In this document: in pieces, positions 2,203 to 36,621 of the stretch
How the letters are laid out: every line of letters starts with the position of its first letter
Position numbering within the stretch: position 1 is the stretch's first letter
From: Deltaproteobacteria bacterium
GTDB lineage: Bacteria > Desulfobacterota_D > UBA1144 > Nemesobacterales > JAJCZQ01
Reading direction: 5' to 3'
DNA: 64,000 bases
NCBI GenBank assembly: GCA_029262335.1
Contig: JAJCZQ010000017.1
Coordinates: forward strand, 4,033 to 68,032
Made by a program: the position numbers and the translations under genes
Notes under the pieces: generated by a model
What the model was told of the DNA's origin: nothing
Databases searched by the model: none
The model's input: the letters and a program-made list of their open reading frames with translations, nothing else

Positions 2203-2628
2203 ATGGACAGGGAACAGTTTATTGAAAATTTACAACTATACGGGGCTGATATTGAAAAATGGCCTGAGGCAATAAGGCAGCAGGCATTAACAGCTTACCG
2301 GAATGTCCCTGAGATTAAGGGCCTGGTTGAAAGTGAAAAAGGTTTTGAATCGATGCTATTGGAAAGGGCCGTAGATGAACCAAGCTCAGATTTTGAAAGA
2401 AGAATAACTCTTTCGGCTAAGCCAAAGATAGAAAAAGAAGAAAAAGCTTCAGTATTCAGCAGTATTTTTGATCTGATAAGTATCCCAAAACCTGCCTTAA
2501 CAATGGCATTCTTACTGCTTTTTGGTTTTTCTCTTGGTTTTTTCTACGATACATACGCTGATACTGGTGAAGATAACATAGATCTTAGTGAATATATAAC
2601 TTTTGATGAGGGGGAGTATTATGAGTAA
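2203..2628 (+). CDS. Putative anti-sigma factor (single-pass membrane protein)
   Basis: Start immediately follows the sigma factor stop. One TM helix (LTMAFLLLFGFSLGFFY). The call is by position only. Confidence 0.45.
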   Translation: MDREQFIENLQLYGADIEKWPEAIRQQALTAYRNVPEIKGLVESEKGFESMLLERAVDEPSSDFERRITLSAKPKIEKEEKASVFSSIFDLISIPKPALTMAFLLLFGFSLGFFYDTYADTGEDNIDLSEYITFDEGEYYE

Positions 2629-3106
2629 AAAAATAAAGACTGTTCTTACCGTTTCGATAATCCTGAATGTATTGCTGCTGGGTGTTTTAATCGGAATGTC
2701 GGCTGATGATTATAAAGACCATAGAAACAAACGGGCAGAATTTCGCAGTGCAGTTGATAAACTTCCTGCTGAAAAATCCAAATTGGTCAAAAAAACCATG
2801 AGGGGCCTTCATAAAGAGACCAGGAAAATCAGAAATGAAGTAAAAAAAACCAGGAAAAATATTAATAAAATAATCAGTGCTCCCGAATTTGATGAATCAG
2901 CATATGATAAAGAGATTGAAAACCTTCAAAGACTACAGTCTGAAATAATGCTCAAATTCGGAAAGGTCACAAAAGAACTAGCAGTCCAGCTGGAACAGGA
3001 CGAAAGGAAAGTAATTGCCGAATTGCTGAAGAAAAGGACCTTTAAACACCAGAGGCATGATGGACCAAAACCCCCAAAGGGGCTTGACCAGCCGCCGTCA
3101 TTTTAA
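2621..3106 (+). CDS. Periplasmic Spy/CpxP-like (LTxxQ family) protein, paralog
   Basis: ISAPEFDESAYDKEIENLQ...LEQDERKVIAELL parallels the 1125..1559 product. Signal peptide present. GAGGGGGA RBS lies before the ATG at 2621. Confidence 0.55.
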   Translation: MSKKIKTVLTVSIILNVLLLGVLIGMSADDYKDHRNKRAEFRSAVDKLPAEKSKLVKKTMRGLHKETRKIRNEVKKTRKNINKIISAPEFDESAYDKEIENLQRLQSEIMLKFGKVTKELAVQLEQDERKVIAELLKKRTFKHQRHDGPKPPKGLDQPPSF

Positions 3107-3161
3107 TAATTACCATACAGGCCCGGAGGGTACAGGGCCCATATAGCAATTACCTTCATAC

Positions 3162-3398
3162 CTATTTCAGATCATTAATAGCTGCACCAAAATTTATATG
3201 ATAGGTGTTATCCCCTATTACAAGCGCCGGTACTGACTGAACACCACTTGATTCGGCTTCGCCGATCCTTCCGCTTTGTTCACCAAGATGGACCATTTCC
3301 ACTTCATACTTTTCCTGGTCAAGGGAGTTGGCCAGCCCCTGTTCTGCGTCAACACATACCGGGCATCCGGCATGATAAAAAATAGCCTTGGTTTTCAT
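3162..3398 (-). CDS. Glutaredoxin/thioredoxin-fold small protein (CPVC motif)
   Basis: 78 aa with a CPVC dithiol motif near the N-terminus. Confidence 0.55.
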   Translation of the reverse strand: MKTKAIFYHAGCPVCVDAEQGLANSLDQEKYEVEMVHLGEQSGRIGEAESSGVQSVPALVIGDNTYHINFGAAINDLK

Positions 3399-5069: not shown

Positions 5070-7751
5070 ATGAGAATATTCACAGGACTTATAATCGTTG
5101 TTGTTATTATTGGCGCACTAATGGCTTTTGCGTTATTTAACCTAAGCAGCCTTGTTAATAAGAATAAGGGAGTTGTTATTTCAAAGATTGAATCCAGTAT
5201 CGACAGGAAAATAGAGGTCGGCGAGATAGGTGTAAGCATATTTGGCGGGCTTGGACTTTCGCTGGATAATTTTAAAATAGAAGACGACAGGGCATTTTCT
5301 CAGGGTAACTTTGTAGAAGCATCGCAGCTGATTGTAAATGTTAAGTTTCTTCCGCTCCTTAAAAAAGATTTCCAGGTCAAAAAATTTACACTCGATGACC
5401 CCGTGATAAACCTGATAAGAAGTAAAAACGGGACATATAATTTTTCAAGCCTTATAAAAGAATCTGAAAAAGAAACAGATGAAGACGGAAAGGAGTCTTC
5501 ATATTTTATTGGTATTGCTGATATTACAAACGGAACGCTAAACTACGAAGACAGGAAAGACAACACTAAAATCCAGGTTACAAATATTGATTTCAGTTCA
5601 GAGGGGATTGAAAAAAATAAACCCGTTAATTTTGAACTCGCAATGGCGGTTCTGTCCAAAGGCCAGAACATTAAAATAGAGGGTACTGTTGGGCCGGAAG
5701 ACCAGGCAGGAGGTTTTGAAAACGCACCGGTTGACCTTTCGGTGGATATTGATTCGGTAAATTTTGCCGATCTTAATAAAAACTTTCCACAGATTAAAGG
5801 ATTACTGCCCGAGGGCCTTGGGCTAAACGGGCCTCTTAAAACAAGTTTTAAAGCAAAGGGTACAGGATCAAAATTAGAGATAAATGATTTAAACCTTAAA
5901 GGTGCCGTATTTGGTTCAGGGGAGCAGAACCTGCACATAAGCGGCAATGCTGGCCCGGTAGGGTCTGCAGCAAAGGGAAATGTAAAACTTGATCTCAATT
6001 TTTCCCTTGATCCAGTGGAGTTTCAAAATCTTAAGAACTTTAAGCAGATTGGAGATTCAATTCCGAAAGAACTCAGCGGTGAAGGGCCGATTAAGTTAAA
6101 TGGAAAAATCAGCGGTACACCGGAGAATCTTTCACTCTCTTCTGTGGTATTTAACGCTACAGATACCAAACTTACCTACGGTGATTTATTTGCAAAAGAT
6201 AAAGGTACACCTTTTACTGTCAGTACTGATACCGAAATTGGTAAATCCGATATTAAATTCACTAAATTAAACATACTGCTGAATAAACTCGAAACTGATA
6301 TTAAGGGGACTATGGGCCTTGGGGATAAAAACAGTTTTGACCTTTCAATTATTTCAAATAACGCTGACCTTGGATCGCTGGCTGATAACCTTTCTTCGCT
6401 TAAAGACTATAAAGTAAACGGCAGCCTGGATGTTGATATTAATTTAAAAGGCACGAGCGATGACCCCAAAATTTTTGGTACTGCAAAGCTCATTAATGTA
6501 GGAGCAAGTCCGGAAGGACTGGTAAAACCGGTTACCGGGATAAACGGTACTGTTAATTTTACGGGAAACGGTGCTACGCTGGATAAAACTGAGATTGATA
6601 TAGGCGGCTCCAGAATGTATGTTGAAGCAAATCTTACGGATTTTTCTCCGCTTACAGGTTCCTATGACCTTACAGCAGACGAAATTCATCTTTCCGATTT
6701 TTCAAAAAATGCAACAAAGGGTGAAGTCTTTAAAGACGTAAATATCGCCGGGAACATAGACGCCGACGGGACCCAGACTGCTGATATCAGCTCCAGTAAC
6801 GGGAAAATCTCAAAGGTGAACTACAAAAAACTAAACGGCAAAGCCACATTAAAAGACGGTGTTGTTGATTTTAATGATTTTAAATTTGATTTTCTAAATG
6901 CCAAGTTCAAATCAAACGGCACTTTTGACCTGAGCGGTGATGTACCCAAATTCCAGATGGACACCGACCTTACCGGGGTAAGTGTAACTGAGCTGGCAAA
7001 GACATTTCTTAATCCTACCGAGTATCCGCTTGTGGGAGTTTCAACCATAAAACTTGCCTTTAAAGGCATTGGTAAGGGTTGGGAAGAAATAAGTAAAACA
7101 CTCGAGGGTAAGGGTAGTGTAGAGATCAATGAAGGCGGGATCAAAAACGTAAATATTGCAGACAGTGTAGTTGGTGGGATTACAGGGGTCCCCGGCCTTA
7201 CTAACTTTATCTCCGCCGATACCAAGGAAAAATACCCATCGGTGTTTAAAAGCAAAGACACAAATTTTTATAATTTTAAAACGCCTATAAGTATAAAAGA
7301 CGGCAAAGTAAATATGGACAACATTAATATAAGTGCAAAGGACTGCAGGATAAACGGCAAGGGTTACGTGGGCCTCGATGGGTCTATGGATATGAATGGT
7401 GTTGTCGCACTTTCGGGTGATATGTCCGATAACCTTGTTGAACAAAAAGACCTTGTTAAGTACCTAAAAAATAACAAAGGAAATATAGAGATTCCATTTA
7501 AAATGGACGAGTCCATGACACCCCAGCCTGATATGGACTATCTGCAAAACTCTTTCCAGAGGGCCGCGAAAGACAAGTCAAAAGAAGAGCTTAAGAAAAA
7601 GATTATTGAAAGCCTAAGCAGTAACGATGAAGACGAAGAAGAAGCCGAGGGCCAGAACCTTGCGCCGGGTGAAAAACCAAAACCCAAAGAGAAAAAAGAT
7701 GGCCTCGACAGTCTTATAGATGAAGGGTTGGATAAGGTGTTTGGGTTTTAG
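5070..7751 (+). CDS. AsmA-family outer-membrane biogenesis protein
   Basis: 893 aa. N-terminal TM anchor, long repetitive beta-rich body with GT..N.T... repeats, C-terminal AsmA-like region and acidic K/E tail. Confidence 0.75.
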   Translation: MRIFTGLIIVVVIIGALMAFALFNLSSLVNKNKGVVISKIESSIDRKIEVGEIGVSIFGGLGLSLDNFKIEDDRAFSQGNFVEASQLIVNVKFLPLLKKDFQVKKFTLDDPVINLIRSKNGTYNFSSLIKESEKETDEDGKESSYFIGIADITNGTLNYEDRKDNTKIQVTNIDFSSEGIEKNKPVNFELAMAVLSKGQNIKIEGTVGPEDQAGGFENAPVDLSVDIDSVNFADLNKNFPQIKGLLPEGLGLNGPLKTSFKAKGTGSKLEINDLNLKGAVFGSGEQNLHISGNAGPVGSAAKGNVKLDLNFSLDPVEFQNLKNFKQIGDSIPKELSGEGPIKLNGKISGTPENLSLSSVVFNATDTKLTYGDLFAKDKGTPFTVSTDTEIGKSDIKFTKLNILLNKLETDIKGTMGLGDKNSFDLSIISNNADLGSLADNLSSLKDYKVNGSLDVDINLKGTSDDPKIFGTAKLINVGASPEGLVKPVTGINGTVNFTGNGATLDKTEIDIGGSRMYVEANLTDFSPLTGSYDLTADEIHLSDFSKNATKGEVFKDVNIAGNIDADGTQTADISSSNGKISKVNYKKLNGKATLKDGVVDFNDFKFDFLNAKFKSNGTFDLSGDVPKFQMDTDLTGVSVTELAKTFLNPTEYPLVGVSTIKLAFKGIGKGWEEISKTLEGKGSVEINEGGIKNVNIADSVVGGITGVPGLTNFISADTKEKYPSVFKSKDTNFYNFKTPISIKDGKVNMDNINISAKDCRINGKGYVGLDGSMDMNGVVALSGDMSDNLVEQKDLVKYLKNNKGNIEIPFKMDESMTPQPDMDYLQNSFQRAAKDKSKEELKKKIIESLSSNDEDEEEAEGQNLAPGEKPKPKEKKDGLDSLIDEGLDKVFGF

Positions 7752-7772
7752 GAATGTCTGGAAAGATATAAG

Positions 7773-7809
7773 AAAAGGGAGCAAAGAATAATTTCAATGC
7801 TCCCTTTTG
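7773..7809. terminator. Conserved family-B hairpin terminator, copy 1, bidirectional
   Basis: AAAAGGGAGCA-aagaataatttcaa-TGCTCCCTTTT. Shared by the convergent AsmA and paralog-1 genes. Confidence 0.8.
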
Positions 7810-7845: not shown

Positions 7846-8847
7846 TTATGATGGATCGATGTCGAAAAAGTTGTCAGTAAAGAATGAATCAAATGAACCT
7901 CTTCCATTGCCGTTGTTAAGTCCTACATAGCCAAAAGCAGCATCTGTTTCTTCACCTATGTTCTCAATTGTTAATATAACTTCACCCTCAGGAATGATGT
8001 TGCCCGGGCAAAGAAGTTCCCCACCTTTACTGTTTGGAATAACGTTGTTGATACCATATTCATACCTTGCTACTGAAGCAGAGGAACGTTCAAATATAAA
8101 TCCACCCTGACTAGCTTGAGTCAGTATTTCCTCTATAAGTGGATTATTCTCATCTACACATGAAAAAACAACGTCACGGCATGAAAAAAGAACCTCGTTG
8201 TTATTGATAATATCAACATCTACAGCAACCCATGTACCAAGTACATTATCAAGGGTTGCTTCAAATATACCTTCACCAACAGAGTCTGTACTAAGAGCGA
8301 TTCCAAATACATCTGAAAGTACTACACCGCTTTCAGAGTTGTAATTAAAGTATGCAGTTGGAAATTGTTCATCAAAAGGGACTCCAACCGAATTGGTAAT
8401 TGCATTGGTCCTGTACTCATAACCAAGGTTGTCATTAATCCTGATATTTCCAATTAATGGCTGAAATATTTCCATGCCTTCATTTACAGGCACAGAAGCG
8501 ACAATTATACCATAGGCATCATCCGGAAGGACTACCCCTGAAGGATTAGTGTCATTTGTTAATATGTTTCTCAGGTTATAAATATGTGTGTCGTTTGGCG
8601 TATAAGCATCAAAAAAGTTGTTCTCGTTACAGAGATTAGCAACATTATAGATCTGTACATGTACTGTCTGACTTGATGAATCTACATTTGTAATCTGGAA
8701 GAAAGACTCCCTGTCCCTCAGGTCAAACGGAACAATTAAAAATATTCCCGCATTGTCTGTTTCCGGAACTATTCCAAAACCGCCGGAAAGAGTATTAGAG
8801 GCAGGAAAAATTAAGGTGATTAATAAGATTAATGTTAATGTTCTCAA
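7846..8847 (-). CDS. Secreted protein, novel paralogous family, member 1
   Basis: Signal peptide. Conserved blocks DLRDRESF, NLCNENNFFD, NDTHIYNLR, GYEYRTN, FSCRDVVFSCVDENNPLIEE, YEYGINNVIPNSKGGELLCPGN, GLNNGNGRGS. TTG start with GGAGG SD. Confidence 0.85.
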   Translation of the reverse strand: MRTLTLILLITLIFPASNTLSGGFGIVPETDNAGIFLIVPFDLRDRESFFQITNVDSSSQTVHVQIYNVANLCNENNFFDAYTPNDTHIYNLRNILTNDTNPSGVVLPDDAYGIIVASVPVNEGMEIFQPLIGNIRINDNLGYEYRTNAITNSVGVPFDEQFPTAYFNYNSESGVVLSDVFGIALSTDSVGEGIFEATLDNVLGTWVAVDVDIINNNEVLFSCRDVVFSCVDENNPLIEEILTQASQGGFIFERSSASVARYEYGINNVIPNSKGGELLCPGNIIPEGEVILTIENIGEETDAAFGYVGLNNGNGRGSFDSFFTDNFFDIDPS

Positions 8848-8973
8848 AATAAAATCCTCCTAAATATTAATTTTGCTTATTTTACAACATTTAAAGTATA
8901 AATACCAGCTTATAGTATATAAAAAAGTAAAGTTTATATATTTGATTTATAGAGATTAAAAGAATTGAGAAAT

Positions 8974-9012
8974 AAAAAAAGGGAGCAAAGAATAATTTCA
9001 ATGCTCCCCTTG
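8974..9012 (-). terminator. Family-B hairpin terminator, copy 2
   Basis: AAAAAAAGGGAGCA-aagaataatttcaa-TGCTCCCCTT, downstream of paralog 2. Confidence 0.75.
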
Positions 9013-9040
9013 ATTAGTGATCTAAGTTTATTTTTTGCTA

Positions 9041-10039
9041 TTACATTTCTTGAAGTATAAAACCATTTTGATAAAAGAATGAATCCATAGACCCTCTTCC
9101 ATTACCATTGTTTAAGCCTACATATCCAAAAAAAGCATCGGTATCATCGCCCTGATTTTCAATTGTTAGAATTACCTCTCCTTCAGGGATTGTATTACCT
9201 GGACAAAGGAGTTCTCCTCCCTTACTGTTTGGAATAACATTGTTTATACCATATTCATAACTTGCAACTGATGCAGAGGAACGTGTGGGAATACCTCCAT
9301 CACTGGCAAGTACAAGTATTTCCTCTATGAGCGGATTGTTTTCATCAACGCAGGAAAACACAACGTCACGGCATGAAAAAAGTACCTCGTTGTTATCGAC
9401 AATATCAACATCTACTGCAACGAATGTACCAAGCACATTATCAAGTGTAGCTTCTGCCTCACTGCCCTCTTCTTCACTTGCTGAAAGGGCGAATCCAAAA
9501 ACATCGGAAAGTACAACTCCACCCTCTGAATTATAGTTAAATGTTAATATTCCAGGTATCTCACTTTCAGGTAAACGGGCAGGGCTGCTTATAATATTGG
9601 ACCTGTATTCATAACCTGAATTATCTGTAATTCTGAAATTGCCGATTAGAGGAGTAGGGGGAATTTCATTAAATTCAACCCCAGCTGATACAAAAACTAT
9701 GCCGTAAGCATCATCGGGCAGCACAACTCCGGAAGGGTTTCCATCATTAGTAAGAATGTCTCTTAAATTATAAACATGTGTGTCGTTTGGTGTATAAACA
9801 TCAAAAAAGTTGTTTTCATTACACAGGTTTGCAACATTATAGATTTGAACATGTATTGTCTGGGAAGCAGAATCCACATTAGTTATCTGTAAAAAGGATT
9901 CTCTGTCTCTCAGGTCAAAAGGCGCAACTGATAAAAAAGACCCGGTGTCTGTTTCGCTTACAACACCTATTCCTCCTGCAATTGAATTGCCTGTAGGGAC
10001 AAACAGTGTTAATAATAAAAGTAAAATAATGGTTCTCAT
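9041..10039 (-). CDS. Secreted protein, novel paralogous family, member 2
   Basis: Same conserved blocks as member 1. Internal ATG at 10039 with GGAGG SD preferred over the 10102 extension. Confidence 0.85.
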   Translation of the reverse strand: MRTIILLLLLTLFVPTGNSIAGGIGVVSETDTGSFLSVAPFDLRDRESFLQITNVDSASQTIHVQIYNVANLCNENNFFDVYTPNDTHVYNLRDILTNDGNPSGVVLPDDAYGIVFVSAGVEFNEIPPTPLIGNFRITDNSGYEYRSNIISSPARLPESEIPGILTFNYNSEGGVVLSDVFGFALSASEEEGSEAEATLDNVLGTFVAVDVDIVDNNEVLFSCRDVVFSCVDENNPLIEEILVLASDGGIPTRSSASVASYEYGINNVIPNSKGGELLCPGNTIPEGEVILTIENQGDDTDAFFGYVGLNNGNGRGSMDSFFYQNGFILQEM

Positions 10040-10130
10040 AAATATCCTCCTAAAAATCAATCCGGTAAAAATAATCTTATTTTTTATATTGTTCAATAGC
10101 ACACATTATATATAAGGTGAATATTGTACA

Positions 10131-10168
10131 AAAAAAGGGAGCAAAGAATAAATTCCATACTCCCTTTC
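10131..10168 (-). terminator. Family-B hairpin terminator, copy 3
   Basis: AAAAAAAGGGAGCA-aagaataaattcca-TACTCCCTTT, one stem mismatch. Confidence 0.65.
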
Positions 10169-10184
10169 TTACTTATGATTTTTT

Positions 10185-11252
10185 TTAGAATTGCCCTATT
10201 TCTTCAGAAAAAATTAAAGCAGGGAAAAACATTGTATCCATTGAACCGCGTCCGTTACCGTTATTTAAACCAATATATCCGTAAAAACCTACAGTATTTT
10301 CTCCACGATTTTCAGGAGTAAGAACTACAACTCCTTCAGAAATTATATTACCGGGGCAAAGGAGTTCTCCTCCTTTACTGTTTGGTATAGCCTCATTAAT
10401 ACCGTATTCAAATCTTGCAACTGAAGCTGATGAACGTGCAAGGGTCTCACTACCTGCGAGTACAAGTATCTCTTCAATCAGGGGGTTGTTTTCATCAACG
10501 CAGGAAAATACAACGTCGCGGCATGAAAACAGGACTTCATTGTTATTAATTATATCCACATCGACTGCAACAAATGATTCAAGGACGTTGTCGAGAGTTG
10601 CTTCAAAAGTAAAAGTTTCATCACCTATGAAGTCATCATCATCATCGCCTATTGCAAACCTATCAGAACTTAATGCTATTCCGAAAACATCTGAAAGTAC
10701 AATTCCGGCCTCAGAGTTAAAATTAAAAGTATTAAAGAACTGTTCAATATTTATAGGTATTATTTGTCCGAAAAAACTCGGTGTGGAAGCAATATTGGTC
10801 CGGTATTCATAACCGGAACTATCTATCATCCTTATATTTCCAATTAGTGGTGTAGTTATGAATTCTGGGTCAATAACTAAAAATGGTATAGGTGCACTAA
10901 TAAACACTATTCCATATGCATCTTCAGGGAGTACTACACCAGAAGGGCTGCCGTCGTTGGTAAGAATGTCCCTTAGGTTGTAAACATGTGTGTCATTTGG
11001 TGTATAAAGGTCGAAAAAATTGTTTTCGTTACAAAGGTTTCCTACGTTATAGATCTGTATATGAAGGTTCTGGCTGGTTGAGTCTATATTAGTCAGCTGA
11101 ATATAAGACTCCCTGTCCCGCAGGTCAAAAGGAGCTGCCAATAGAAAGGACGAGTTGTCAGTCTCTGCCAGGCCAATTGGACCAAGCCCTGCAAAAGAGA
11201 TACCGGCAGGTGTGAAAAGTGTAATTAAAAGCAGTAAAGTTAAAATCCTCAT
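10185..11252 (-). CDS. Secreted protein, novel paralogous family, member 3
   Basis: Same conserved blocks. Poly-Asp variable loop (GDDDDDFIGDE). ATG with GGAGGA SD. Confidence 0.85.
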   Translation of the reverse strand: MRILTLLLLITLFTPAGISFAGLGPIGLAETDNSSFLLAAPFDLRDRESYIQLTNIDSTSQNLHIQIYNVGNLCNENNFFDLYTPNDTHVYNLRDILTNDGSPSGVVLPEDAYGIVFISAPIPFLVIDPEFITTPLIGNIRMIDSSGYEYRTNIASTPSFFGQIIPINIEQFFNTFNFNSEAGIVLSDVFGIALSSDRFAIGDDDDDFIGDETFTFEATLDNVLESFVAVDVDIINNNEVLFSCRDVVFSCVDENNPLIEEILVLAGSETLARSSASVARFEYGINEAIPNSKGGELLCPGNIISEGVVVLTPENRGENTVGFYGYIGLNNGNGRGSMDTMFFPALIFSEEIGQF

Positions 11253-11330: not shown

Positions 11331-11362
11331 AAAAAGCAGCAAAGAATAAATTAAGTGCTTCC
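11331..11362. repeat. Degenerate copy 4 of the family-B hairpin (stem eroded)
   Basis: AAAAAAGCAGCAAAGAATAAATTAAGTGCTTCC aligns to copy 3 but retains only a 4-bp stem. No gene is upstream on the minus strand. Confidence 0.5.
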
Positions 11363-11680
11363 TAGTTTAATAATTTTAATATCAGGAAAAGTGCTAAACA
11401 ATCTTTTCTCCCACCCAGTATCCAGTCCAAAATTGAACCAATTAGGTAATTATAAAACCATTTTGACTATATATTCAAGTATGAAATTAACACGCTAAAT
11501 GAATACTGCAATAAGATCTTATATAACATGCTGATATTATTATGTATTATGAAATATATTTATTGGAACATGTAAAAAGTATAAAAGTAGTTTTAAAACT
11601 TTATAAAGTCCCATTCGTATTAATAATTCATCAAAAATAAAATCCTGAATACAGTTTTCAGGTCTATAAGGGGTTTTCAA

Positions 11681-12106
11681 ATGAGGTTTTTATTAATTGC
11701 AGTGTTATTTGTTTTTTCGGCAGTTCCGGTTTTTGCCTGCCAGGTAAATGACTACAACAAGGGTATAAACTCAAGCTTTAATTACGGGGGGGTTGCATAT
11801 AAAACGGTCCTGCCATTTTCGAAACTATCGGAAAGCAAGAATTTTGATATAGAAAGCGGCGATTTTCCGGTAGGTTTTGGCCAGATCATTAAGACTGGAA
11901 AGGGGCTTACTAATAAGGTGGATAGTGAGGCGGTATGGTCAGTAGAATCGGTGGGACTTAATAAATACAACTACAGTAACTGCGTTTACTGGTACTACCA
12001 GATTAATATGCGTTCAAATAATCCTAATAATAACTATCTCTACCTTAATATAGGGGTTAACGGGGAGAAGCCGAATATTTATAAAATCAATGAGGTGCTT
12101 TTATAA
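11681..12106 (+). CDS. Small secreted hypothetical protein
   Basis: Signal peptide (AVPVFACQ). 141 aa, no recognisable motif. Followed by a G/C hairpin terminator. Confidence 0.45.
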   Translation: MRFLLIAVLFVFSAVPVFACQVNDYNKGINSSFNYGGVAYKTVLPFSKLSESKNFDIESGDFPVGFGQIIKTGKGLTNKVDSEAVWSVESVGLNKYNYSNCVYWYYQINMRSNNPNNNYLYLNIGVNGEKPNIYKINEVLL

Positions 12107-12625: not shown

Positions 12626-13210
12626 TTAATTTGAACACCCATTTCCCCCTAATTCTTCAAGATGCAAACTAATCTCAGATTTAATTTCTTCATCATCTTC
12701 CGCTCTTGAACAGGCAATTTGCAAAAGTTCTATAGCTTTTTCACGGCTGCCCGATGCTGAGTACAGCACTGCAAGTGTGTCGAGGGCAAAAGCGGGTGCA
12801 ATCTCGGCAGGGGGCAGGGTTTCTATAAGAACCTCAATCCCTTTATCGAATTCCTTCCCGGTTTCGAGATAGACATTGCCCAGGTTGTTTGCTGCCAGCA
12901 CGTTTTTATTGTCTTTTTTAAGTGCCTTAAGATAGTACTTCCGTGCATCTTTATATTTGCCCTGTTTGAAGTAAACATTCCCGATGTTAATAAGCGGCGT
13001 GACCAGCTCTTCATCTTTTTTGGAAGCGAGTTTGTATTCTTTAATGGCAAGTTTGTATTTTTCTTCCTTCTCATATGCAACGCCCAGATTGTTGTGCTCT
13101 TCTGCAGTTAACGGGTCTTCATAGTTTAATACCGCTGATACATGGGCGCAGCTAATATTCAGGGATATGGACAGAATTAAAAAGAATATCGGTATGGATT
13201 TAATCTTCAT
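12626..13210 (-). CDS. TPR-repeat lipoprotein
   Basis: Lipobox (LNISC). Several TPR units (NNLGVAYEKEEKYKLAIKEYKLA, INIGNVYFKQGKYKDARKYY, NNLGNVY). Confidence 0.7.
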   Translation of the reverse strand: MKIKSIPIFFLILSISLNISCAHVSAVLNYEDPLTAEEHNNLGVAYEKEEKYKLAIKEYKLASKKDEELVTPLINIGNVYFKQGKYKDARKYYLKALKKDNKNVLAANNLGNVYLETGKEFDKGIEVLIETLPPAEIAPAFALDTLAVLYSASGSREKAIELLQIACSRAEDDEEIKSEISLHLEELGGNGCSN

Positions 13211-13754
13211 TATCTATTACCAGCATAAGCCTGTTCATCTTTTCCCACTGTTTATCAAGCTTATCGTAACTTATTGTGTTTCCGTTATTTTTACCATCAT
13301 GGATAAGGAATTGACTGCTGTCCGGGTTGTAACCGTAAACAACATAGTAGTGCTGAACGGGTACACCTAACTTTCCCCTGTCGACAAGAAGGATGACGGG
13401 TTTATTATCGTCTACCAGCCTTGTTAATGTATTCAAATTCCCATTGTCTGTTTTGGATGAAAAACCATTTTCTTCAGCATAATACTTCATGTCTGAAATT
13501 AAAGATCCGTTAAGCTCAGGTGTATATACATTTGCGGCAATTTCATCCTGGTTTGTTTCTTTGCCGTAATATCTGAATACCGAGGTTAATGCCGCAGGGC
13601 CGCATAGCTGGTATTTCTGTTTCACAAATGGGACACCTGTGATTACAGTTCCCGTATTTCCCAGGCTGCTGCTCTCAGGTGCTGTTTTAGTGCAGCTTAA
13701 AAGAACAGCTGAGACAGATAGAAATAACGCAAGTGTAAGGGCAGCGTGTGACAT
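13200..13754 (-). CDS. Secreted papain-like cysteine peptidase, C39-like domain
   Basis: Signal peptide. QKYQLCGPAALTSVFRYYG (catalytic Cys context) and HYYVVYGYNP (His context) resemble the Peptidase_C39-like family. Confidence 0.55.
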   Translation of the reverse strand: MSHAALTLALFLSVSAVLLSCTKTAPESSSLGNTGTVITGVPFVKQKYQLCGPAALTSVFRYYGKETNQDEIAANVYTPELNGSLISDMKYYAEENGFSSKTDNGNLNTLTRLVDDNKPVILLVDRGKLGVPVQHYYVVYGYNPDSSQFLIHDGKNNGNTISYDKLDKQWEKMNRLMLVIDNED

Positions 13755-16673: not shown

Positions 16674-18278
16674 ATGATCCTAGGATTCTTTGGAGATAAC
16701 ACAAGCTGGCTAAACAGGACAATACTGATACTTATTGCATTATCATTTGTAATGGGTTTCGGATATTTTGGAGTGATTAACCTTACAAATACAGGTGTTT
16801 CAACCGGGACAGCAGCCGAAGTAAACGGTGAAAAGATCCCGCTTGTACAGTTTTATAACGTGAGGGAAAATCTTTACGACCAGTTTGGCGAAGGCCTTCA
16901 AAACATCCCGCCGGAAGCTATGCAGTTCTTTAACGTTCGTGCTCTTCAGCAGCTGGTCGAAGCAAAACTGCTTGCACAAAAGGCGCAGCAGCTTGGATTT
17001 ACTGTTTCGGATGACGAGCTCAGCGAATCAATAAGGACAAACCCTTCTTTTCAGCAGGACGGAAAATTTATAGGCCTCGATAATTACAGAAACCTTATTC
17101 GCCAGGCTTTAAACATGAGTGTGGGGGATTTTGAAAAAGGGTATAAAGAGGAGCTGCTTGTTCAGAAAGTAGTGGAGCTTATAAACAACTCTGCAAAAAT
17201 CACAGACGATGAACTGTTTAACCTTTATAAGGTAGAAAATGAAAATATTAACCTTTACTACATATCTTTTGAGCCGGGTGAGTTCGGTGATTCAGCTGAG
17301 ATAAGTGATGGCGAAATTTCAGAATATTACGACAAAAACAAGGACAAGTTCCTGACAGACGAAGAAAGAAGAATTGATTATATAAAGGTAAACCAGGCTG
17401 ATTTTGAAAAGAACATCCCCATCTCAGACGACGAAGTTGACTCTTATTATAGTTCATACGGTGACGAGTTTAAAGACGAAGAAGGCAATGTAAAGCAGCT
17501 TGCAGATGTTAAGGATGAGATTGTCGGGAACCTAAGGAAAAAAAGAGTAGGCAGTATCTACGACAATTTTGTAAACACTGTTACAAGGAGTGATTCCATA
17601 GACCCACTGGATAAACTGGTTGCAGAGAACACTCTCTCCCCGGCCACCAGCTCAGAATTTTTTACAGCAAAACAGGAAACCGAAGTTTTCCCGATAGAAC
17701 TCAGGAATAAAGCGTTTACTATTAATGCAAATGAGGTCTCGGCATATAATTACCGGGGTGACCTTTGGGTATTTGAAGTTAAAGAAATAAAGGAGCAGTC
17801 ACAAAAATCACTTGATGATGCAAAAGAAGATATAATCTCGACACTAAAGAACGCCAAGGGATCGGAAGCTGCAAAGATAGCTGCCGATGAATCATTAAAG
17901 AAACTGCTTGGCAACAACTCAACCTCATTTAGAAACCTCTCCAAGTCATTTAACCTGGATGTTAAGGAATCAGGACTGTTTACAAGGGCAAAAGCTCCTG
18001 CAGAGCTTAATGTTGAAGATCTGAAACTGGATGCATTTCTGCTTTCAAAATCAAGCCCGACTGCCAAAAAGATCTATAAATCAGGTGACAGTTTTTACAT
18101 TATTTCTTTAAAAGAGAGAAAAGATGTTAGCAAAGAACAGTTTGATCGCGAAAAAGACACAATAATGAACCAGCAGTTATCCAGGCAAAGGGGTGAACTT
18201 CTTTCAGCATGGATAGATACTATCAGGAATGAATCGGAGATTGTGCCGAATCCAAACCTGATTAGTTCAAATAATTAG
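16674..18278 (+). CDS. PpiD/SurA-like periplasmic chaperone, membrane-anchored
   Basis: N-terminal TM, SurA-N-like region (FFNVRALQQLVEAKLLAQKAQQLGFTVSDDEL). No clear rotamase signature. Confidence 0.55.
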   Translation: MILGFFGDNTSWLNRTILILIALSFVMGFGYFGVINLTNTGVSTGTAAEVNGEKIPLVQFYNVRENLYDQFGEGLQNIPPEAMQFFNVRALQQLVEAKLLAQKAQQLGFTVSDDELSESIRTNPSFQQDGKFIGLDNYRNLIRQALNMSVGDFEKGYKEELLVQKVVELINNSAKITDDELFNLYKVENENINLYYISFEPGEFGDSAEISDGEISEYYDKNKDKFLTDEERRIDYIKVNQADFEKNIPISDDEVDSYYSSYGDEFKDEEGNVKQLADVKDEIVGNLRKKRVGSIYDNFVNTVTRSDSIDPLDKLVAENTLSPATSSEFFTAKQETEVFPIELRNKAFTINANEVSAYNYRGDLWVFEVKEIKEQSQKSLDDAKEDIISTLKNAKGSEAAKIAADESLKKLLGNNSTSFRNLSKSFNLDVKESGLFTRAKAPAELNVEDLKLDAFLLSKSSPTAKKIYKSGDSFYIISLKERKDVSKEQFDREKDTIMNQQLSRQRGELLSAWIDTIRNESEIVPNPNLISSNN

Positions 18279-18404
18279 AATATTTTTATGTTTCGTAGCT
18301 TTAAAATCAGGTGAAAAACAGGATTTTCCGGGGAATATTTTTATCCAGGGTGGTATATTTTAATATTTATACAATAGTTTATAAAAAAGTTTTATATTTA
18401 TACT

Positions 18405-20351
18405 GTGAATAGGGCAAACTTGGAATCGCAAAATAACAACTCATTTAGCGGGCAGTTAGACAAAACATCATTACCCTACCTGCTGGTTTACCTGCAAAAT
18501 AGCAGGCAAACCGGTACTTTAGACATTAATTCAAAATACGAAATCTCAATTTTTACGGACCAGGGCAACCCTTATTTTGCCGCCGGGGGCAGCGGGGAAA
18601 CTCTGCTGGGCAAGATACTTTTAAATAAGAACAAGATCACAAAGTATCAGTATGACCGCGCTGTAGAGGAAATAAAAAAAGATAAGGATAAACGAATCGG
18701 TGAAATCCTTGTCAATCTTGGCATGATCACCCCACATGAACTAAACGAATATCTTGATTTGCAGCTCCGGGAGAAAATCCTCGAGACTTTCCTTTATCTT
18801 GAAGGGGATTTTAGTTTCACAGTTGACAATCAAATAAGAAACGATCTTTTTTACTCGAAATTAAATCCCTCCGAATTAATTCACGACGGATTTAACAGAT
18901 ACGTATTTGCAGCAGATACCAACCTGGACCTTCTTGATATTGAAATTAAAAGCAGTTTACAGGAGGAGATCGCCAACCTCGGCCTCGGCCCTAAAGAACT
19001 AAGGCTTGTGCAGCTGCTGGGCCAGAAAAAATCCTTAAGTGAGATAGAATCGTCGGGGCAGTTTAAAAAGGACGATCTTCTGAGGGTAATTTTACTGCTG
19101 GGCCTACATGACAGGATTGAGATAAAAAACATAAAAATTAATGACTTTTTGATTGACCTTTTCAGAAAATTTTTAGTAATGAACCCGCTTCCTAATCCAA
19201 TAGACTCAAACTACACGGTCAGGGAGAGCGAACTTACTGACCCCACCGGGGAAGTACTTTTACTTGATGATGAACTGGAGGCAACTGCAGAGAGAGAAAA
19301 GCTCTACCATAATAATAATGATGAAATAGTAGAGAATAAGGCTGAGGAAGTTTTAATCAACCTGGAAAGTGAAAGTGTCCCTAAAATTGCAGCAGAGCAT
19401 GTTGATATCCCTGCTGAAGAAAAGCCGGAAGAGATGAAATCTATAGAATTAGAACCGGAAGGCGAAGATGATCTGAAAATAAATTCTAATATCGATGGTC
19501 ATTCTTTCCAGGAATCATATGAGGGCACGCAAAAAAGTATTGACATTGAATCCGAAAAAAGCGGTTCAGAAATGAAAGGAGAGCCGTTGGCTCCTGATGA
19601 AGAGCAGCATTCTGAAAAAGACATAATCAATTTTTACGATCATATTCAGAATGAGGAAGACTACTATAAAATACTGAGTATTAAGAAAGATGCCTCGATT
19701 GATGAAGTAAAAGAAGCGTATTTTAAATCTATAAAGAAATTTCATCCCGATGCCAATATGAATTTCCCTGAAGATATAAGAATAAAGGCGGAAAGGATTT
19801 TTACAAAAGTAACCAAGGCATATGAAATCCTGAGTGATGAACACAAAAGGACTACCTTTGATGAGAAAGATGAATTAAGCAAATTCAGGGAACAGGCCAA
19901 CTCTATCTATGAAGCCGAGATAATATATTCCGAAGGAGAAATGCTGCTGAGGCAAAGAAACTTTAAGGAAGCTGAAAAGAAATTTAAAGAAGCTATTCAG
20001 CTAAACCCTGATGAATCGGCATATATTGGAATAAATGCCTGGGCAAAATACCTTGGTGCCCCGGACAAGGAAGTTGTTTACGAGGACGTAAAAAAAGAGC
20101 TTAAAAGTGCAATTGATATGGATACTAACATTGCAGAAAACTATTATTATCTTGCGTCAGTATATAAATTTTCAGAAAACCTCGGCAATGCAGAAAAATA
20201 TTTTGAAATGGCAATACAAAGAGACCCCAATTATATTGAAGCCAAGAGAGAATTAAGACTCCTTCAAAGCCGAAAAGGAAAAAGCCCCGCCCCTAAAAGT
20301 TCTTCCAAAAAAATTGAAAAAAAATTCTGGTCAGGTTTATTTAAGAAATAG
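18405..20351 (+). CDS. DUF4388-like N-domain / J-domain / TPR protein
   Basis: J-domain with HPD (DYYKILSIKKDASIDEVKEAYFKSIKKFHPD). C-terminal TPRs. N-terminal LPYLLVYLQNSRQTGTLD. GTG start. Confidence 0.7.
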   Translation: MNRANLESQNNNSFSGQLDKTSLPYLLVYLQNSRQTGTLDINSKYEISIFTDQGNPYFAAGGSGETLLGKILLNKNKITKYQYDRAVEEIKKDKDKRIGEILVNLGMITPHELNEYLDLQLREKILETFLYLEGDFSFTVDNQIRNDLFYSKLNPSELIHDGFNRYVFAADTNLDLLDIEIKSSLQEEIANLGLGPKELRLVQLLGQKKSLSEIESSGQFKKDDLLRVILLLGLHDRIEIKNIKINDFLIDLFRKFLVMNPLPNPIDSNYTVRESELTDPTGEVLLLDDELEATAEREKLYHNNNDEIVENKAEEVLINLESESVPKIAAEHVDIPAEEKPEEMKSIELEPEGEDDLKINSNIDGHSFQESYEGTQKSIDIESEKSGSEMKGEPLAPDEEQHSEKDIINFYDHIQNEEDYYKILSIKKDASIDEVKEAYFKSIKKFHPDANMNFPEDIRIKAERIFTKVTKAYEILSDEHKRTTFDEKDELSKFREQANSIYEAEIIYSEGEMLLRQRNFKEAEKKFKEAIQLNPDESAYIGINAWAKYLGAPDKEVVYEDVKKELKSAIDMDTNIAENYYYLASVYKFSENLGNAEKYFEMAIQRDPNYIEAKRELRLLQSRKGKSPAPKSSSKKIEKKFWSGLFKK

Positions 20352-20434
20352 CTTTTTTAAACATTGATTCACAGATTTACAGTTCCTTTATTAATTTTGA
20401 GAAGTTTGCAGTCAAATTTTCTTGAACTTAACTT

Positions 20435-23400
20435 ATGCGTATTAAATCATTAGAACTTATAGGATTTAAATCCTTCTACAACAAAACAAAACTTGAGCTA
20501 AGTAACGGCATTAATGCGGTCGTAGGCCCCAATGGCTGCGGCAAGTCCAATATCATTGACGCAATGAGATGGGTACTCGGGGAACAAAACCCCAGGATGC
20601 TCAGGGCGGAAAGCATGGAAGAGCTCATTGCCAACGGCACGGATCTATTAAAGCCGCTTGGTATGGCTGAGGTCTCACTCGTAGTAGAAAACCTGCCGGG
20701 CCTGGGCTTTGAAGAAGTGAATATTAAAAGAAGGTATTACCGTTCCGGTGATAGCGAATACACGATCAACGGAGTTAAGTGCAGGCTCAAGGATATCACA
20801 GAACTTTTTCTTGATACCGGTGCCGGTGCCAGGGGATATTCAATTATTGGCCAGGGTAAGGTTGAAGAGTTTATTACTGCCAAACCTGAAGACAAAAGAA
20901 GGCTGATTGAAGAAGTAGCGGGTGTTGTAAAGTATAAAACAAGAAGAAAAGAGACCCAGAGCAGGATTGAGTCCACAAGGGAAAACCTCAGCAGGGTTTC
21001 CGATATGACAAGGGAAGTATCGAGGCAGATGGAAAGCCTCAGCAGGCAGGCAGAAGAAGCAGAGGAGTATAAAAAACTTACAGAACACCTTAAACTGCTG
21101 GAGTTAAACATACTTCGGTTTCGTTTGAATAAGCTTACAAACGAGAACAACAATCTTGAAACGCAAAAAGCCAAGCTCGGTGTATTAATAAACGAACTAA
21201 GCGAGAAAAGAGAGCAGGGAAGCCAGGCCTTAAGGGACTCCGAGTCTGCAAACAGTAGATTTAATGAAGAAATAAACAGCTTTGAAAATGATATCTATAC
21301 ACTTAAAACAGAAATTAATGAAAAGAATTCATACCAGGAATATGTTAAAAAAGAATCAGCAGGAATTGACGAATATATTAACAGGCTCAAAAAAGAGATC
21401 GCATCAATTGAGTCCGAAAAAAATGAGATAAGAGAGACAGTAGCCAACAAAAGAACTTATCTCCAGCGTAACGAAGAAGAAAAAAAGGGTTTTCAAAACG
21501 AGCTCCAGTCACTTGAAAGTGATTTGGAAAACCTTCGCCAGAAATCCACCAATAATAAAACCGAACTGGATAATACAAAATCCGTACTTTATGAGATTCT
21601 GAATAACTACAGCTCCATAAAAGGTTCTGCGGTAGGTATCGGCAAGGAGCTTGAGGAACTGAAGTCAAGGCGTCTAAGGCTTGATGCAGAAATAGAAAAC
21701 ATTTCGGTCAATGTAAACGATTGTAATACAAGGCTTAGCGGCCTTAAAAATGAGATTGAACAGCTGCAGAATGAAAAAGGCAGTTTCCAGCAAAATAAAG
21801 ACACACTCGTAAATACATACCTTTCCAACAAACGGATGTTTGAAACTGGTATGGAAGAAAATAACAGCATGAGAGAGAGATTAAACGATGCCCTCTCCAA
21901 GATTGAAATACTGAATGATGTTCAGTCCAAATACGAATGGCTCCCCGAAGCTGTAAGGGAATTTCTGGTTGAAAACAAAATTGACGGTGTACTGGGCGTT
22001 GTTTCTGATTTTGTCCAGGTGCCTGAAAATTATGAAAAAGCACTTGAAGCAGCATTAGGCGAGAAATCCAACTGGGTTATTGTAAGAGGCAGTGATGATG
22101 CACTATCTGCAATTGACCTTTTAAAAGGATCTTCATCCGGCCGCGGTACATTCTTCCCTGTTACAAACAGGGACTACCCAAAGTCTTCAGTCCCGGGAAA
22201 CACGAATTATAAAAAAATGAGCGACCTTGTTAATGTAAGGGAAATAGACAGGCAGTTTATTGAATCAATTCTTGACTCAGTCTACGTTGTTTCGAGCCTT
22301 GACGGGGCTATCAAATTAAGGGCCGAGCTTGGTTCCGGAGTATCTGCCGTAACTATGGACGGCAGTTTTGTTGACAGCTATGGTGCTATCTCCGGCGGGT
22401 TTACAACTGGCGGCGTTTTTGAAAGAAAAAGAGAGATTGAAGGCCTTGAAGTACTTTCAGCGGACCTGAAAGAAAAAGTTAGTGTTAATAAAACTAAACT
22501 CGATAACCTCGGGATTGAGATTCAAAAAAACAACAGCGAAATTGAAAACCTCGACAGGGTCCTTCGTGAAAAAGAGTTAAAAGCCGTGGAAATAGACCGC
22601 GACATTTCAAACCTTAAACTTACCATAAAAGAAAACATTGAAAGAAGAGAACGTTTTGAGTCCGAAACAAGGGAAGTTGATGAGCAGATTACATCAAAGA
22701 ATCAGCAGGTAGAGGAGTTTAGCCAAAAACTTACAAATATTGAAAAAGAGAGAGAAGAGCTGGACCAGAGGTTTGCCCGGTTTGAAGATATAGTAAAGAA
22801 CTATGAAAACAGGGAAAAACTTATTGAGCAGGACATTACGGGCCTGAAAGTAAAATCAGCCTCAATCATTGAGACAGAAAGGCTTGTGGAAAGAGAGATA
22901 AACGAACTGCTTGAAAGGGACACCAGGCTTTCCGATAAGATAATTAGTGAAAAAGAAGAGATAAATACCAAGGATAAAGAAAAAGAGGAACTGCTAAGTA
23001 ATGGCCAGGCCTCAAAGGAGCAGGTTGAGACGCTGGGGCAGCAGTTGGTATTTAAGGAAAAAGAACTTCATGAAATTAAGGCAAACCGGGAAAAATCTGC
23101 CGAAAGCCTTATGGACAGCAGACAGGCGATGGAGAATATTGACCAGGAACTAATAAGGTTGAAAGACGATTCTTCCTCCATAGAGATTAAAGCCAACGGG
23201 GTAACACTCGAGATTGTCCATATAAATGAACAGGTACAGAAAATAACAGGTGAAGAAGAAATAAACCTGAGTGATACGGTAGAAGACCAGGGCAGTTTTA
23301 ACCTCGTCGAATCAACCAGGGAGTACAACAAACTCAAAAAACGGGTTGATAGTTTCGGGTTGGTAAATCTGCTTGCACCGGAAGAGTATAAGAAACTCGA

Positions 23401-34354: not shown

Positions 34355-35458
34355 ATGGCCAGCATTATTAACGATTTTAAAATTGTTGTTTTTATCAGTT
34401 TTATATTAATCGCAATTACATTTTTTAACTGCGGGGGCGATAGTATAGATTCATCCACAAACAGCAGTTCACCGGAACTCAGCAGAATTGACGGACGTGT
34501 TACTGAGGTGCTGGCATTAAAAATAGATGAAAAACAGTCACATTTTGCTGAAATTAAAAATACATTGAGTTTTACCGTGACAGCTACCGCCCAGGGGTCC
34601 TTAGTGGATGGAATTTTAGTTATGGCTATTGGGAATGATTCAAACGGTGAAAAGCTTTTGGACCAGGATACAACAGCCTTTGATGGCAGTTTCAGCCTGT
34701 TTGTCCCGGCCGGGGAAGTTGCTCTGCAGTTTGAAGTTGATAACGAAGTATATGAAAAAGTATTGCAGGTCCCTGAGGAAACCACTGTTGAAATACTGGT
34801 CAGCATAGATAAAGAAGATAAAGTAAACCCGGTTGAAATATCCGGTCCGGATGAAGTTGGCGAAGAGGAAAATACGGAAGATACTATTGATGAAACGGAA
34901 GATAATAGTGAAGACATGAATAATGAAAATGATGTTCCTGAGCCGGAAGATACTAATGACATGCAGGATGAAGATGAGCAGACAGGTAATGATGACGATG
35001 ACAATCAGGGTGATTTTGATCCACCATCTTCGGGAGAAGGGAATATAACTTCGGCAGAATTAGTCTCTTCGGTAAACTCAAGACGGGCCCAGGGGGCAAA
35101 TTGCGGATCCGAAGGGTCATTCGGGCCACAGGGGCCGCTTGGAATAAGTAACTCTCTTGGTGAAGCGGCACTCAGGCATTCAGTAGATATGTCAGAAAAC
35201 AATTTTTTTGAACACCGGGGTTCTGACGGATCAAGCCCTATAGACAGAATGAGGGATGCGGGGTTTGCCGGAAACGGCTGGGGTGAGAATATCTCACGTG
35301 CAAGCTATGAAAGATCAGCCGAGGAAGTAGTAGCAGGCTGGATGACAAGTGACGGGCACTGTTCAAACATTATGACCCCGGGTTTTAATGTCCTGGGTTC
35401 TGCAAAAGCAGCTAACAGCAACTGGGAAAACTGGACACTTAATCTCGGTACTGAGTAA
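34355..35458 (+). CDS. CAP (SCP/PR-1-like, YkwD-type) domain lipoprotein with acidic linker
   Basis: Lipobox FFNCGG. Long D/E-rich linker. C-terminal CAP region (ELVSSVNSRRAQGANCGSEG...EHRGSDGSSPIDRMRDAGF...GENI...AGWMTSDGHCSNIM). Confidence 0.75.
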   Translation: MASIINDFKIVVFISFILIAITFFNCGGDSIDSSTNSSSPELSRIDGRVTEVLALKIDEKQSHFAEIKNTLSFTVTATAQGSLVDGILVMAIGNDSNGEKLLDQDTTAFDGSFSLFVPAGEVALQFEVDNEVYEKVLQVPEETTVEILVSIDKEDKVNPVEISGPDEVGEEENTEDTIDETEDNSEDMNNENDVPEPEDTNDMQDEDEQTGNDDDDNQGDFDPPSSGEGNITSAELVSSVNSRRAQGANCGSEGSFGPQGPLGISNSLGEAALRHSVDMSENNFFEHRGSDGSSPIDRMRDAGFAGNGWGENISRASYERSAEEVVAGWMTSDGHCSNIMTPGFNVLGSAKAANSNWENWTLNLGTE

Positions 35459-35566: not shown

Positions 35567-36556
35567 ATGAGAGTATCATCTTTTTTAATAGCAGTTTCAC
35601 TTTGTTTAAGTTTTACAGTAATTTCAATTCAGGAAAGTTCTTCCCAGGCACTACCTATTGCAGAGTCTGACGCTGCAGGGCCACAGTTGATTGGTTTTTT
35701 TGACCTTAGGGAGAGAGAATCTTTCATGCAGTTAACTAATACCGATAGTGCAGTACAAACAGTACATATTCAGCTTTTCAATGTTAATGACAACTGCAAC
35801 GAAAACAATTTCTTTGATGACTATACCGCTAACGATACACATATATATAATCTGAGAGACATTCAGACTAACGATGGAAACCCACCGGGAGTAGTACTCC
35901 CAGCTGATGCTTATGGAATATTTGTTGCAACTTATGTGAATAAACCAAATGTTATGCAGCCCCCTCTTGCATTAGTAGGAAACCTAAGAGTTATTGACAA
36001 CAGCGGCTACGAATACAGGACAAATCTGCTTAGCTCCCTTGCCTCTGAAATTCAATCAATTTTTGACCCGGTAACCTTCAACTTTAATTCTGAAGCCGGT
36101 GTAACACTTTCAGATGTGATAGGTATTCCACTTGACGATTTAGGTGAATTCGAACTACCTGCTGAAGTGTTTGCAGCTGACGTTACAAATATATGGTTAA
36201 GCTTTGATGTAAATATATTGGATAATATTGAAAATATATTTTCATGCAGGGATATAACATTTGCCTGTGTCAACGATCAGAATCCTTTATTAGAAGAATT
36301 GTTGGCTGCATCACAAACCAGTGTTGCGAGCTTTGAATACGGTATCAACAATGCAATACCTCACAGCAAGGGTGGAGAACTTCTTTGTCCTGGTAATACA
36401 ATATCCGAAGGGGTTGTTACACTAACAAATATTGACGTTGGATTTGAATCACAACCTACTTACTTTATTTTTGTAGGTCTTAACAATGGAAACGGCAGGG
36501 GTAGTCTGGATGTAATCTGGAACGATCAGATACCTGATATGATGGGTGGTGGTTAA
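35567..36556 (+). CDS. Secreted protein, novel paralogous family, member 4
   Basis: FFDLRERESFMQLTN, NDNCNENNFFD, NDTHIYNLRDIQTNDGNPPGVVLP, GYEYRTN, FSCRDITFACVNDQNPLLEE, FEYGINNAIPHSKGGELLCPGN, GLNNGNGRGS. Confidence 0.85.
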   Translation: MRVSSFLIAVSLCLSFTVISIQESSSQALPIAESDAAGPQLIGFFDLRERESFMQLTNTDSAVQTVHIQLFNVNDNCNENNFFDDYTANDTHIYNLRDIQTNDGNPPGVVLPADAYGIFVATYVNKPNVMQPPLALVGNLRVIDNSGYEYRTNLLSSLASEIQSIFDPVTFNFNSEAGVTLSDVIGIPLDDLGEFELPAEVFAADVTNIWLSFDVNILDNIENIFSCRDITFACVNDQNPLLEELLAASQTSVASFEYGINNAIPHSKGGELLCPGNTISEGVVTLTNIDVGFESQPTYFIFVGLNNGNGRGSLDVIWNDQIPDMMGGG

Positions 36557-36571
36557 TAACTAAAAAATCAG

Positions 36572-36612: not shown

Positions 36613-36621
36613 TTAGTTTTT

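Follow-up and report, generated by a model that had tools for sequence, protein, structure and literature searches.

A family of exported two-domain proteins with a predicted TM1070/ASRT fold, expanded in an uncultured bacterial lineage

Five paralogous genes without a described family

The DNA considered here is a stretch of 64,000 nucleotides (the window) from contig JAJCZQ010000017.1 of the Deltaproteobacteria bacterium assembly GCA_029262335.1. An earlier reading of its letters alone, the original prediction, had pointed to five genes in the window, three of them adjacent on the minus strand and two dispersed, as paralogs of an unrecognised secreted-protein family. All five open reading frames (ORFs) were present:

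7846-8847, minus strand: paralog 1, 333 amino acids, TTG start, ORF confirmed
9041-10039, minus strand: paralog 2 (equals P0001), 332 amino acids from the ATG at 10039, 71% identity to paralog 1
10185-11252, minus strand: paralog 3, 355 amino acids, ATG start, 66% identity to paralog 1
35567-36556, plus strand: paralog 4, 329 amino acids, dispersed, directly downstream of the gene for a secreted CAP-domain protein
49638-50645, plus strand: paralog 5, 335 amino acids, dispersed and of a distinct subtype; the gene upstream of it encodes an animal haem peroxidase

When the five proteins were aligned with MAFFT, copies 2 to 5 were 71, 66, 52 and 50% identical to copy 1, respectively, and more than 100 columns were invariant. 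Every motif of the long near-identical blocks that had been listed earlier fell in these invariant columns, and the lack of similarity that had been named as a possible refutation was not seen. The four cysteines reported as invariant (C73, C223, C230 and C280; numbering of copy 1 throughout) were indeed present in 5/5 copies, and they were at least 95% conserved across 274 full-length relatives. The longest ORF of paralog 2 reaches back to a GTG at 10102, and the ATG at 10039 sits 5 nucleotides after TAGGAGGA. Paralog 3 carries an acidic DDDDD insertion within a variable loop.

The family had been proposed to be undescribed, and at the level of sequence and architecture this is what we found. 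Pfam and NCBIfam scans of the five copies with E values up to 10 gave nothing meaningful, the five copies matched no PHROGs family, and a PDB sequence search with a family profile returned only matches with E above 1, which we regard as noise. When 87 members were scanned singly against Pfam, at most five had a match in common; DUF4898, an OB-fold model and DUF5643, each found in at most five members in the library scans, were discarded as noise. Since the Pfam, NCBIfam, PHROGs and PDB sequence searches were all empty, no confident match to a characterised family stands against the proposal. A comparison of the N-terminal half with the C-terminal half in hhalign found no internal duplication. 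At the level of the fold, the N domain joins a known but functionally uncharacterised superfamily, as described below.

Size of the family and its host lineage

With the five copies combined into a profile, a search retrieved at least 1020 clusters at 90% identity, all of them unnamed and lacking a precomputed Pfam domain. When 1.84 billion cluster representatives were searched exhaustively with HMMER, 387 clusters at 50% identity reached E ≤0.001, and 151 of them E ≤1e-30. All members were unnamed, and they occurred only in metagenomes or in unannotated metagenome-assembled genomes (MAGs). Scanning of metagenome contigs gave 173 confirmed stretches. From these, 72 loci were taken, and ORF calling in them yielded 150 distinct members. 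The expansion, proposed for this genome from the five window copies, extends in related genomes well beyond the evidence of the window: the related MAG GCA_905148435.1 holds at least 25 copies, a single 837-kb contig at least 13, and a single 150-kb contig at least 12 inside 42 kb, while same-strand arrays reach up to seven genes. The triplet in the window is a small case of this general array habit.

The window itself is ordinary chromosome of Gram-negative type, with SMC, SecA, MoxR, TrpE, FolD, AsmA-family, SurA-like and SLT genes; no rRNA or tRNA genes were found within it. Its SecA is 69-79% identical to the SecA of MAGs labelled Thermodesulfobacteriota by NCBI, a coarse placement only. 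The G+C content of all loci lay between 31 and 42%, and some of the contigs came from the Loki's Castle deep-sea sediment assemblies (SDBT01; PMC6401483). Scanning 185,579 GTDB species representatives returned one 3.3-kb contig only, carried by a MAG labelled Hyphomicrobiales; its G+C content is just 35%, and it is therefore probably misbinned. The host lineage, related to the Thermodesulfobacteriota-labelled MAGs, thus seems to be absent from, or is virtually absent among, the GTDB representative genomes. No relatives were found in 2.9 million IMG/VR contigs, and this, together with the empty PHROGs search, ruled out a phage origin. We conclude that this is a genuine family of exported proteins, which is subject to strong purifying selection and has undergone a huge expansion within a single uncultured lineage.

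Export, composition and cysteines

Signal peptides were judged by eye from the sequence. A basic N terminus, a hydrophobic core of 10-15 residues and a small-x-small cleavage site (for example SFA↓G, SIA↓G, SQA↓L and SKA↓G) were recognisable in 5/5 copies and in nearly all of 120 homologs, in agreement with the Sec signal peptides that had been predicted. A lipoprotein reading was ruled out, as there is no conserved lipobox and no lipobox Cys. In the AlphaFold2 model of paralog 1, residues 2-13 form a helix and residues 18-26 a low-confidence junction. The original prediction had called the proteins secreted. The Sec-type signal peptides uphold this in part; in a host of Gram-negative type, as the AsmA, SurA-like, SLT and SecA genes in the window show it to be, the term strictly means exported across the inner membrane, and any final location beyond that membrane (periplasm, surface or medium) we can only infer.

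The exported proteins have a mass of about 33 kDa. They are strongly acidic when mature, with an isoelectric point of about 4, 13-15% Asp plus Glu, 9-11% Asn and about 3% Lys plus Arg; because Lys and Arg are so few, the invariant arginines make up a large share of the positive charge. Since C223 and C230 share a predicted strand, with a spacing of seven residues, they cannot pair with each other. If two disulfides form, C73 must therefore bridge the N and C domains, a connectivity that is predicted from sequence and would staple the two domains together; the expected partner of C73 is C223 or C230, and C280 would pair with whichever of the two is left.

Predicted fold and conserved residues

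We modelled paralog 1 with AlphaFold2, using an alignment of 87 sequences. The model, with a mean predicted local distance difference test score (pLDDT) of 87.5 and a predicted template modelling score (pTM) of 0.85, was almost entirely beta and was divided into two beta-rich domains:

Residues about 1-22 of paralog 1: signal peptide
Residues about 27-152: ASRAH-like N domain
Residues about 155-325: C-terminal beta domain

In a Foldseek comparison with the PDB, the sole specific match was 1nc7 (TM1070), with a probability of 1.0 and a target TM-score of 0.70-0.75; the top-ranked entries for the full-length model (a viral chemokine-binding protein and antibodies) had TM-scores below 0.2 and were meaningless. 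The modelled N domain is an eight-stranded two-sheet sandwich with the topology of TM1070, and on this model it is assigned the TM1070/ASRT fold. The C-terminal domain is without a known structural relative. The ASRAH superfamily, of which PF07100/DUF1362 (ASRT/TM1070) is the founding family, was defined by De Souza, Iyer and Aravind (PMC2739507), who predicted that its members bind sugars or related small molecules in a cleft lined by residues of strand 2, and secreted versions of the domain exist (PMC2739507). In the superfamily the domains come as tetramers, dyads or tetrads, with a cleft where two of them meet in a dimer; the present proteins have one ASRAH-like domain each.

At the sequence level, PF07100 gave no match to the five copies with E up to 10, nor to the 87 members with E up to 1. 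For a profile comparison, 120 ASRT relatives of at least 77% identity were collected and aligned with TM1070 (the ASRT sequence being checked against 2ii7). Against the resulting 122-sequence alignment, the N-domain profile obtained an hhalign probability of 0.3% with an E value of 0.22, the ASRT alignment being shallow and the test therefore weak. Its best local alignment, also non-significant, laid RESFFQITN...HVQIY (strands 2-3) over SHETVCILN...VEITIY of ASRT. A manual, gap-free alignment of the motifs, one residue off the hhalign register, placed E47, Q51 and N54 on H25, C29 and N32 of TM1070 and H88 on the conserved His of ASRT strand 5, so that the ASRT His and Cys become Glu and Gln. 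The strand-2 signature of ASRT, SHEshChhN, is absent; the family reads R-E-S/T-F/Y-h-Q-h-T-N in its place, and strand 1 lacks a conserved Trp and has F41 instead. N54, which ends predicted strand 2, is the majority residue (50-80%) across the 274 members and reaches 93% in a divergent set; the copy-5 subtype has an insertion in this region. We regard the correspondence in strands 2 and 3 and at H88, which was read from sequence, as suggestive only.

Across the 274 full-length members, 38 columns were at least 95% conserved. The residues retained in 49 members that are only 28-31% identical to paralog 1 were, in the N domain, D42, R44, R46, Q51, N54, H63, Q65, C73, D80, D86, Y90, R136, E144, Y145 and R146, and in the C domain D179, E218, C223, C230 and N311. 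Variation and indels were concentrated in the loops at about 118-131, 149-165, 187-205, 245-258 and 297-303.

Expression signals

According to the original prediction, each copy has its own GGAGG Shine-Dalgarno site and its own terminator and is independently expressed. The signals read from the DNA were as follows:

8855-8862, minus strand: Shine-Dalgarno TAGGAGGA, 7 nucleotides before the TTG of paralog 1
10052-10045, minus strand: Shine-Dalgarno TAGGAGGA, before the ATG at 10039 of paralog 2
11264-11257, minus strand: Shine-Dalgarno TAGGAGGA, before the ATG at 11252 of paralog 3
7771-7805, minus strand: terminator-like hairpin after paralog 1; it faces the end of an AsmA-family gene (5070-7751) that runs convergently
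8974-9009, minus strand: intrinsic-terminator-like hairpin (GGGGAGCA...TGCTCCC and a T run) after paralog 2
10131-10166, minus strand: terminator-like hairpin after paralog 3
about 36567-36616, plus strand: hairpin and T run after paralog 4

A Shine-Dalgarno site precedes all five genes, and the TTG start was confirmed. In the array, TAGGAGGA lies 5-7 nucleotides ahead of the start codon; paralog 4 has GGAGGA before 35567, and paralog 5 departs from the proposed motif, with AAGGAG rather than GGAGG before 49638. Each of the five stop codons is followed in the intergenic DNA by a G+C-rich hairpin and then a T run, as had been claimed, and the three array hairpins are near-identical (GGGAGCA...TGCTCCC, then a T run). 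These hairpins were read by eye, and a simple terminator scanner listed none of them. The peroxidase gene upstream of paralog 5 has a terminator of its own. As sigma-70-like promoter matches were no more frequent than in shuffled sequence, separate transcription, for which the terminators are the evidence, is plausible.

Upstream of paralog 3, at about 11335-11375 on the minus strand and behind no ORF, lies a degenerate hairpin of the array type (GAAGCAC...TGCTGC and a T run), possibly the relic of a lost fourth copy or the boundary of a duplication unit.

Domain fusions and neighbouring genes

Some relatives carry the two-domain unit as part of a larger protein, joined to further modules. One partner is an alpha/beta hydrolase with a GWSLG nucleophile elbow (P0136), the type of which could not be assigned; others are Calx-beta, acidic double-disulfide repeats, Cys-rich repeats, DUF1554, and a hydrophobic segment with an Arg-rich tail (P0155). 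All of these fusion contexts are extracellular or surface contexts. P0155, a divergent protein of 806 amino acids from outside the window, contains one complete and one degenerate family unit. Behind each of them comes a hydrophobic segment and then an Arg-rich tail; in the second case a Gly-rich stretch, GGGGGGCS, stands in front of the segment. Judged by sequence, the arrangement looks like a C-terminal signal for sorting or anchoring; it matched no NCBIfam model. On a long-read contig (L082, 2476-4127), a family member, a 70-amino-acid ORF and a DUF1554 ORF stand in successive overlapping frames, probably a frameshifted form of the family-DUF1554 fusion of P0146.

When the ORFs in 1.1 Mb around the genes were clustered, no gene family emerged as a partner at more than 7 of about 77-80 loci, the neighbours being miscellaneous housekeeping genes, and the gene context of the divergent members was uninformative. 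An animal haem peroxidase gene (Pfam E 1e-159) adjoins a family member in 3/3 loci where it was found:

Window: peroxidase 47629-49419, family member 49638-50645
L001: the two genes at 629-1708 and 2518-3321
L012: the two genes at 17463-18542 and 19187-20914

The gaps measure 219-810 bp, the relative orientation differs, and the members in the window and in L001 are of the copy-5 subtype. This pairing may be synteny that was inherited, or it may have a functional basis such as oxidative cross-linking of the Tyr-rich family proteins.

The window also encodes a 986-amino-acid protein with a thaumatin domain (30773-33733) and a CAP/SCP-domain protein with a long acidic linker (34355-35458), which together with the haem peroxidase make up a cluster of eukaryote-like secreted proteins; a related contig encodes a collagen-repeat protein (L003, 5946-7055). 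Just downstream of paralog 5 is a Gp49/HigB-like toxin gene (PF05973; 50951-51265, plus strand), probably part of a toxin-antitoxin pair. At 12626-13754 on the minus strand, 1.4 kb from the array, genes for a protein with a C39-like cysteine peptidase domain (184 amino acids) and a TPR protein (194 amino acids) overlap by 11 bp, and no link between this two-gene unit and the family was found. Two further plus-strand ORFs were without a Pfam match, one of 1047 amino acids (41577-44720) at 1e-5 and one of 141 amino acids with a signal-peptide-like N terminus (11681-12106) at 1e-3.

Interpretation

The explanation that we favour, with a probability of roughly 0.4, is that these exported, disulfide-stapled proteins bind an anionic, probably carbohydrate, ligand and that the paralogs differ in their surface loops. 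They would most likely act outside the cytoplasm as ligand binders rather than as enzymes, each consisting of two beta-rich domains that are probably stapled together by disulfides. The invariant cluster of Arg, His, Tyr, Gln and Asp/Glu on the ASRAH-like N domain would form the pocket for an anionic, probably carbohydrate-derived ligand, the C-terminal domain and the hypervariable loops would differ between paralogs, and dozens of separately transcribed copies would offer one binding chemistry on different surfaces or to different partners. We infer the pocket, the nature of the ligand and the absence of catalysis. That the same domain pair is fused to several other modules supports the role of a binding module. 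Several observations weigh on the other side. The profile comparison with ASRT was non-significant, and with an hhalign probability of 0.3% common descent and a shared binding mode with ASRT can therefore only be supposed. The 38 columns conserved at 95% or more include many polar residues, a pattern more typical of enzymes than of binding modules. Moreover, a need for dozens of paralogs with an identical site is unexplained, and the clustering of ORFs at the loci linked no carbohydrate-utilisation genes, transporters or regulators to the family.

A serious if doubtful alternative is that the proteins are enzymes of a new kind that work outside the cytoplasm, for example as lyases or hydrolases of anionic polysaccharides, with the invariant set of the N domain as catalytic centre and paralogs of differing substrate specificity. 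The retention of the polar residues R44, R46, Q51, H63, Q65, Y90, R136, E144, Y145 and R146 down to 28% identity is consistent with this, and comparable sets of Arg, Gln, His and Tyr are used by beta-jelly-roll polysaccharide lyases such as PL7. Large paralog sets are also common among the secreted degradative enzymes of marine heterotrophs, and deep-sea sediment is among the habitats (SDBT01 contigs). However, the PL7 motifs RxELR, QIH and YFKAGxYxQ are absent from the five-copy alignment, and the combination of these motifs with a PL7 jelly-roll fold was not found. Nor are the genes linked to transporters, sulfatases or other genes resembling those of carbohydrate-active enzymes, and the sole catalytic fusion, that to the alpha/beta hydrolase, looks like the architecture of an accessory module. 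No enzyme with an ASRAH fold is described in PMC2739507.

A structural or surface role, in which the proteins would build for example a surface layer, a fibre or a matrix, is in our estimate unlikely; the paralogs would then provide surface variation (for instance against phages or grazers), and the conserved blocks would serve folding or assembly. Such a role would fit with genomes that carry dozens of copies, with arrays in which as many as seven genes each have their own terminator, and with strong Shine-Dalgarno sites and strong terminators. It would also fit with invariant cysteines and a conserved scaffold with hypervariable, indel-rich loops, and the C-terminal hydrophobic segment with an Arg-rich tail in divergent members suggests surface anchoring. 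Yet signals for anchoring or sorting are lacking in the window copies, the neighbourhoods show no recurrent genes for assembly, ushers or secretion, and likeness to fibre subunits was seen only at the level of a generic beta-sandwich. In addition, the invariant residues are charged or polar and concentrated in one domain, which fits a site better than an extended interface. That the proteins are secreted toxins or effectors against other cells, diversified in an arms race, is very improbable: they are exported, multi-copy and variable, but there is no immunity-like small ORF (the spacers of 150-600 bp are without conserved ORFs), no toxin-domain or PADLOC-type context, the structural matches are generic, and the variable parts are loops rather than a swapped C-terminal module as in polymorphic toxins.

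Comparison with known systems

The binding role that we favour can be set against what is known of the fold. As in ASRT/TM1070, an Asn ends predicted strand 2 before a short turn in most members of the family (N54, 93% in divergent members). Conserved polar residues also occupy strand 2, from which in TM1070 a His and a Cys contact the ligand (PMC2739507). Unlike ASRT/TM1070, to which it has no detectable sequence similarity (no PF07100 match and the hhalign result given above), it lacks the SHEshChhN signature and the strand-1 Trp. Whereas ASRT/TM1070 is cytoplasmic, the family proteins are exported, and they have an extra beta domain of about 170 residues and conserved cysteines; their genes occur in dozens of copies and are unlinked to sugar-metabolism operons.

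Closer in cellular location are the secreted ASRAH families, which comprise amidase-fused repeats in Chloroflexi and actinobacterial cell-surface lipoproteins; their predicted ligands are carbohydrates of the cell surface or the environment (De Souza, Iyer and Aravind 2009, PMC2739507). With these families the present one shares an extracytoplasmic location, a predicted ASRAH fold and family-specific residues in place of the ASRT His and Cys. It differs in that the secreted families are domain dyads or tetrads, whereas here one ASRAH-like domain is joined to an unrelated C domain with no repeat detected by hhalign; there is also no lipobox and no amidase, the host lineage is another one, and the expansion of paralogs is far larger. 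As for generic beta-sandwich carbohydrate-binding modules (CBMs), galectins and GOLD domains, their structural scores were far below that of the TM1070 match, no Pfam CBM or lectin model matches the family, and the topology differs from that of CBM4 (PMC2739507).

Significance for the fold and the lineage

Undescribed metagenomic families are very numerous, and the functional reading given here is a predicted one. The present family is a clean case of one that is invisible to Pfam and NCBIfam and could be placed by structure prediction. The TM1070/ASRT fold has been a structural-genomics orphan since 2003, with a binding role that is predicted only, and a large, highly conserved exported family with an invariant cluster makes a tractable target for determining the function of this fold. 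A bolder version of the hypothesis, which we hold to be improbable, is that the family makes up a new class of enzymes or receptors that use the ASRAH fold outside the cytoplasm. In marine sediments, their invariant Arg/His/Tyr/Gln centre would capture anionic polymers or process them, and the family would have expanded to dozens of specificity variants in one uncultured low-GC lineage. If this were true, the TM1070/ASRT fold would gain its first biochemical function, and the lineage a trait that defines it. Because an uncultured lineage of marine and sediment habitats devotes a noticeable share of its coding capacity to the family, the latter is likely to be central to how these bacteria deal with their surroundings.

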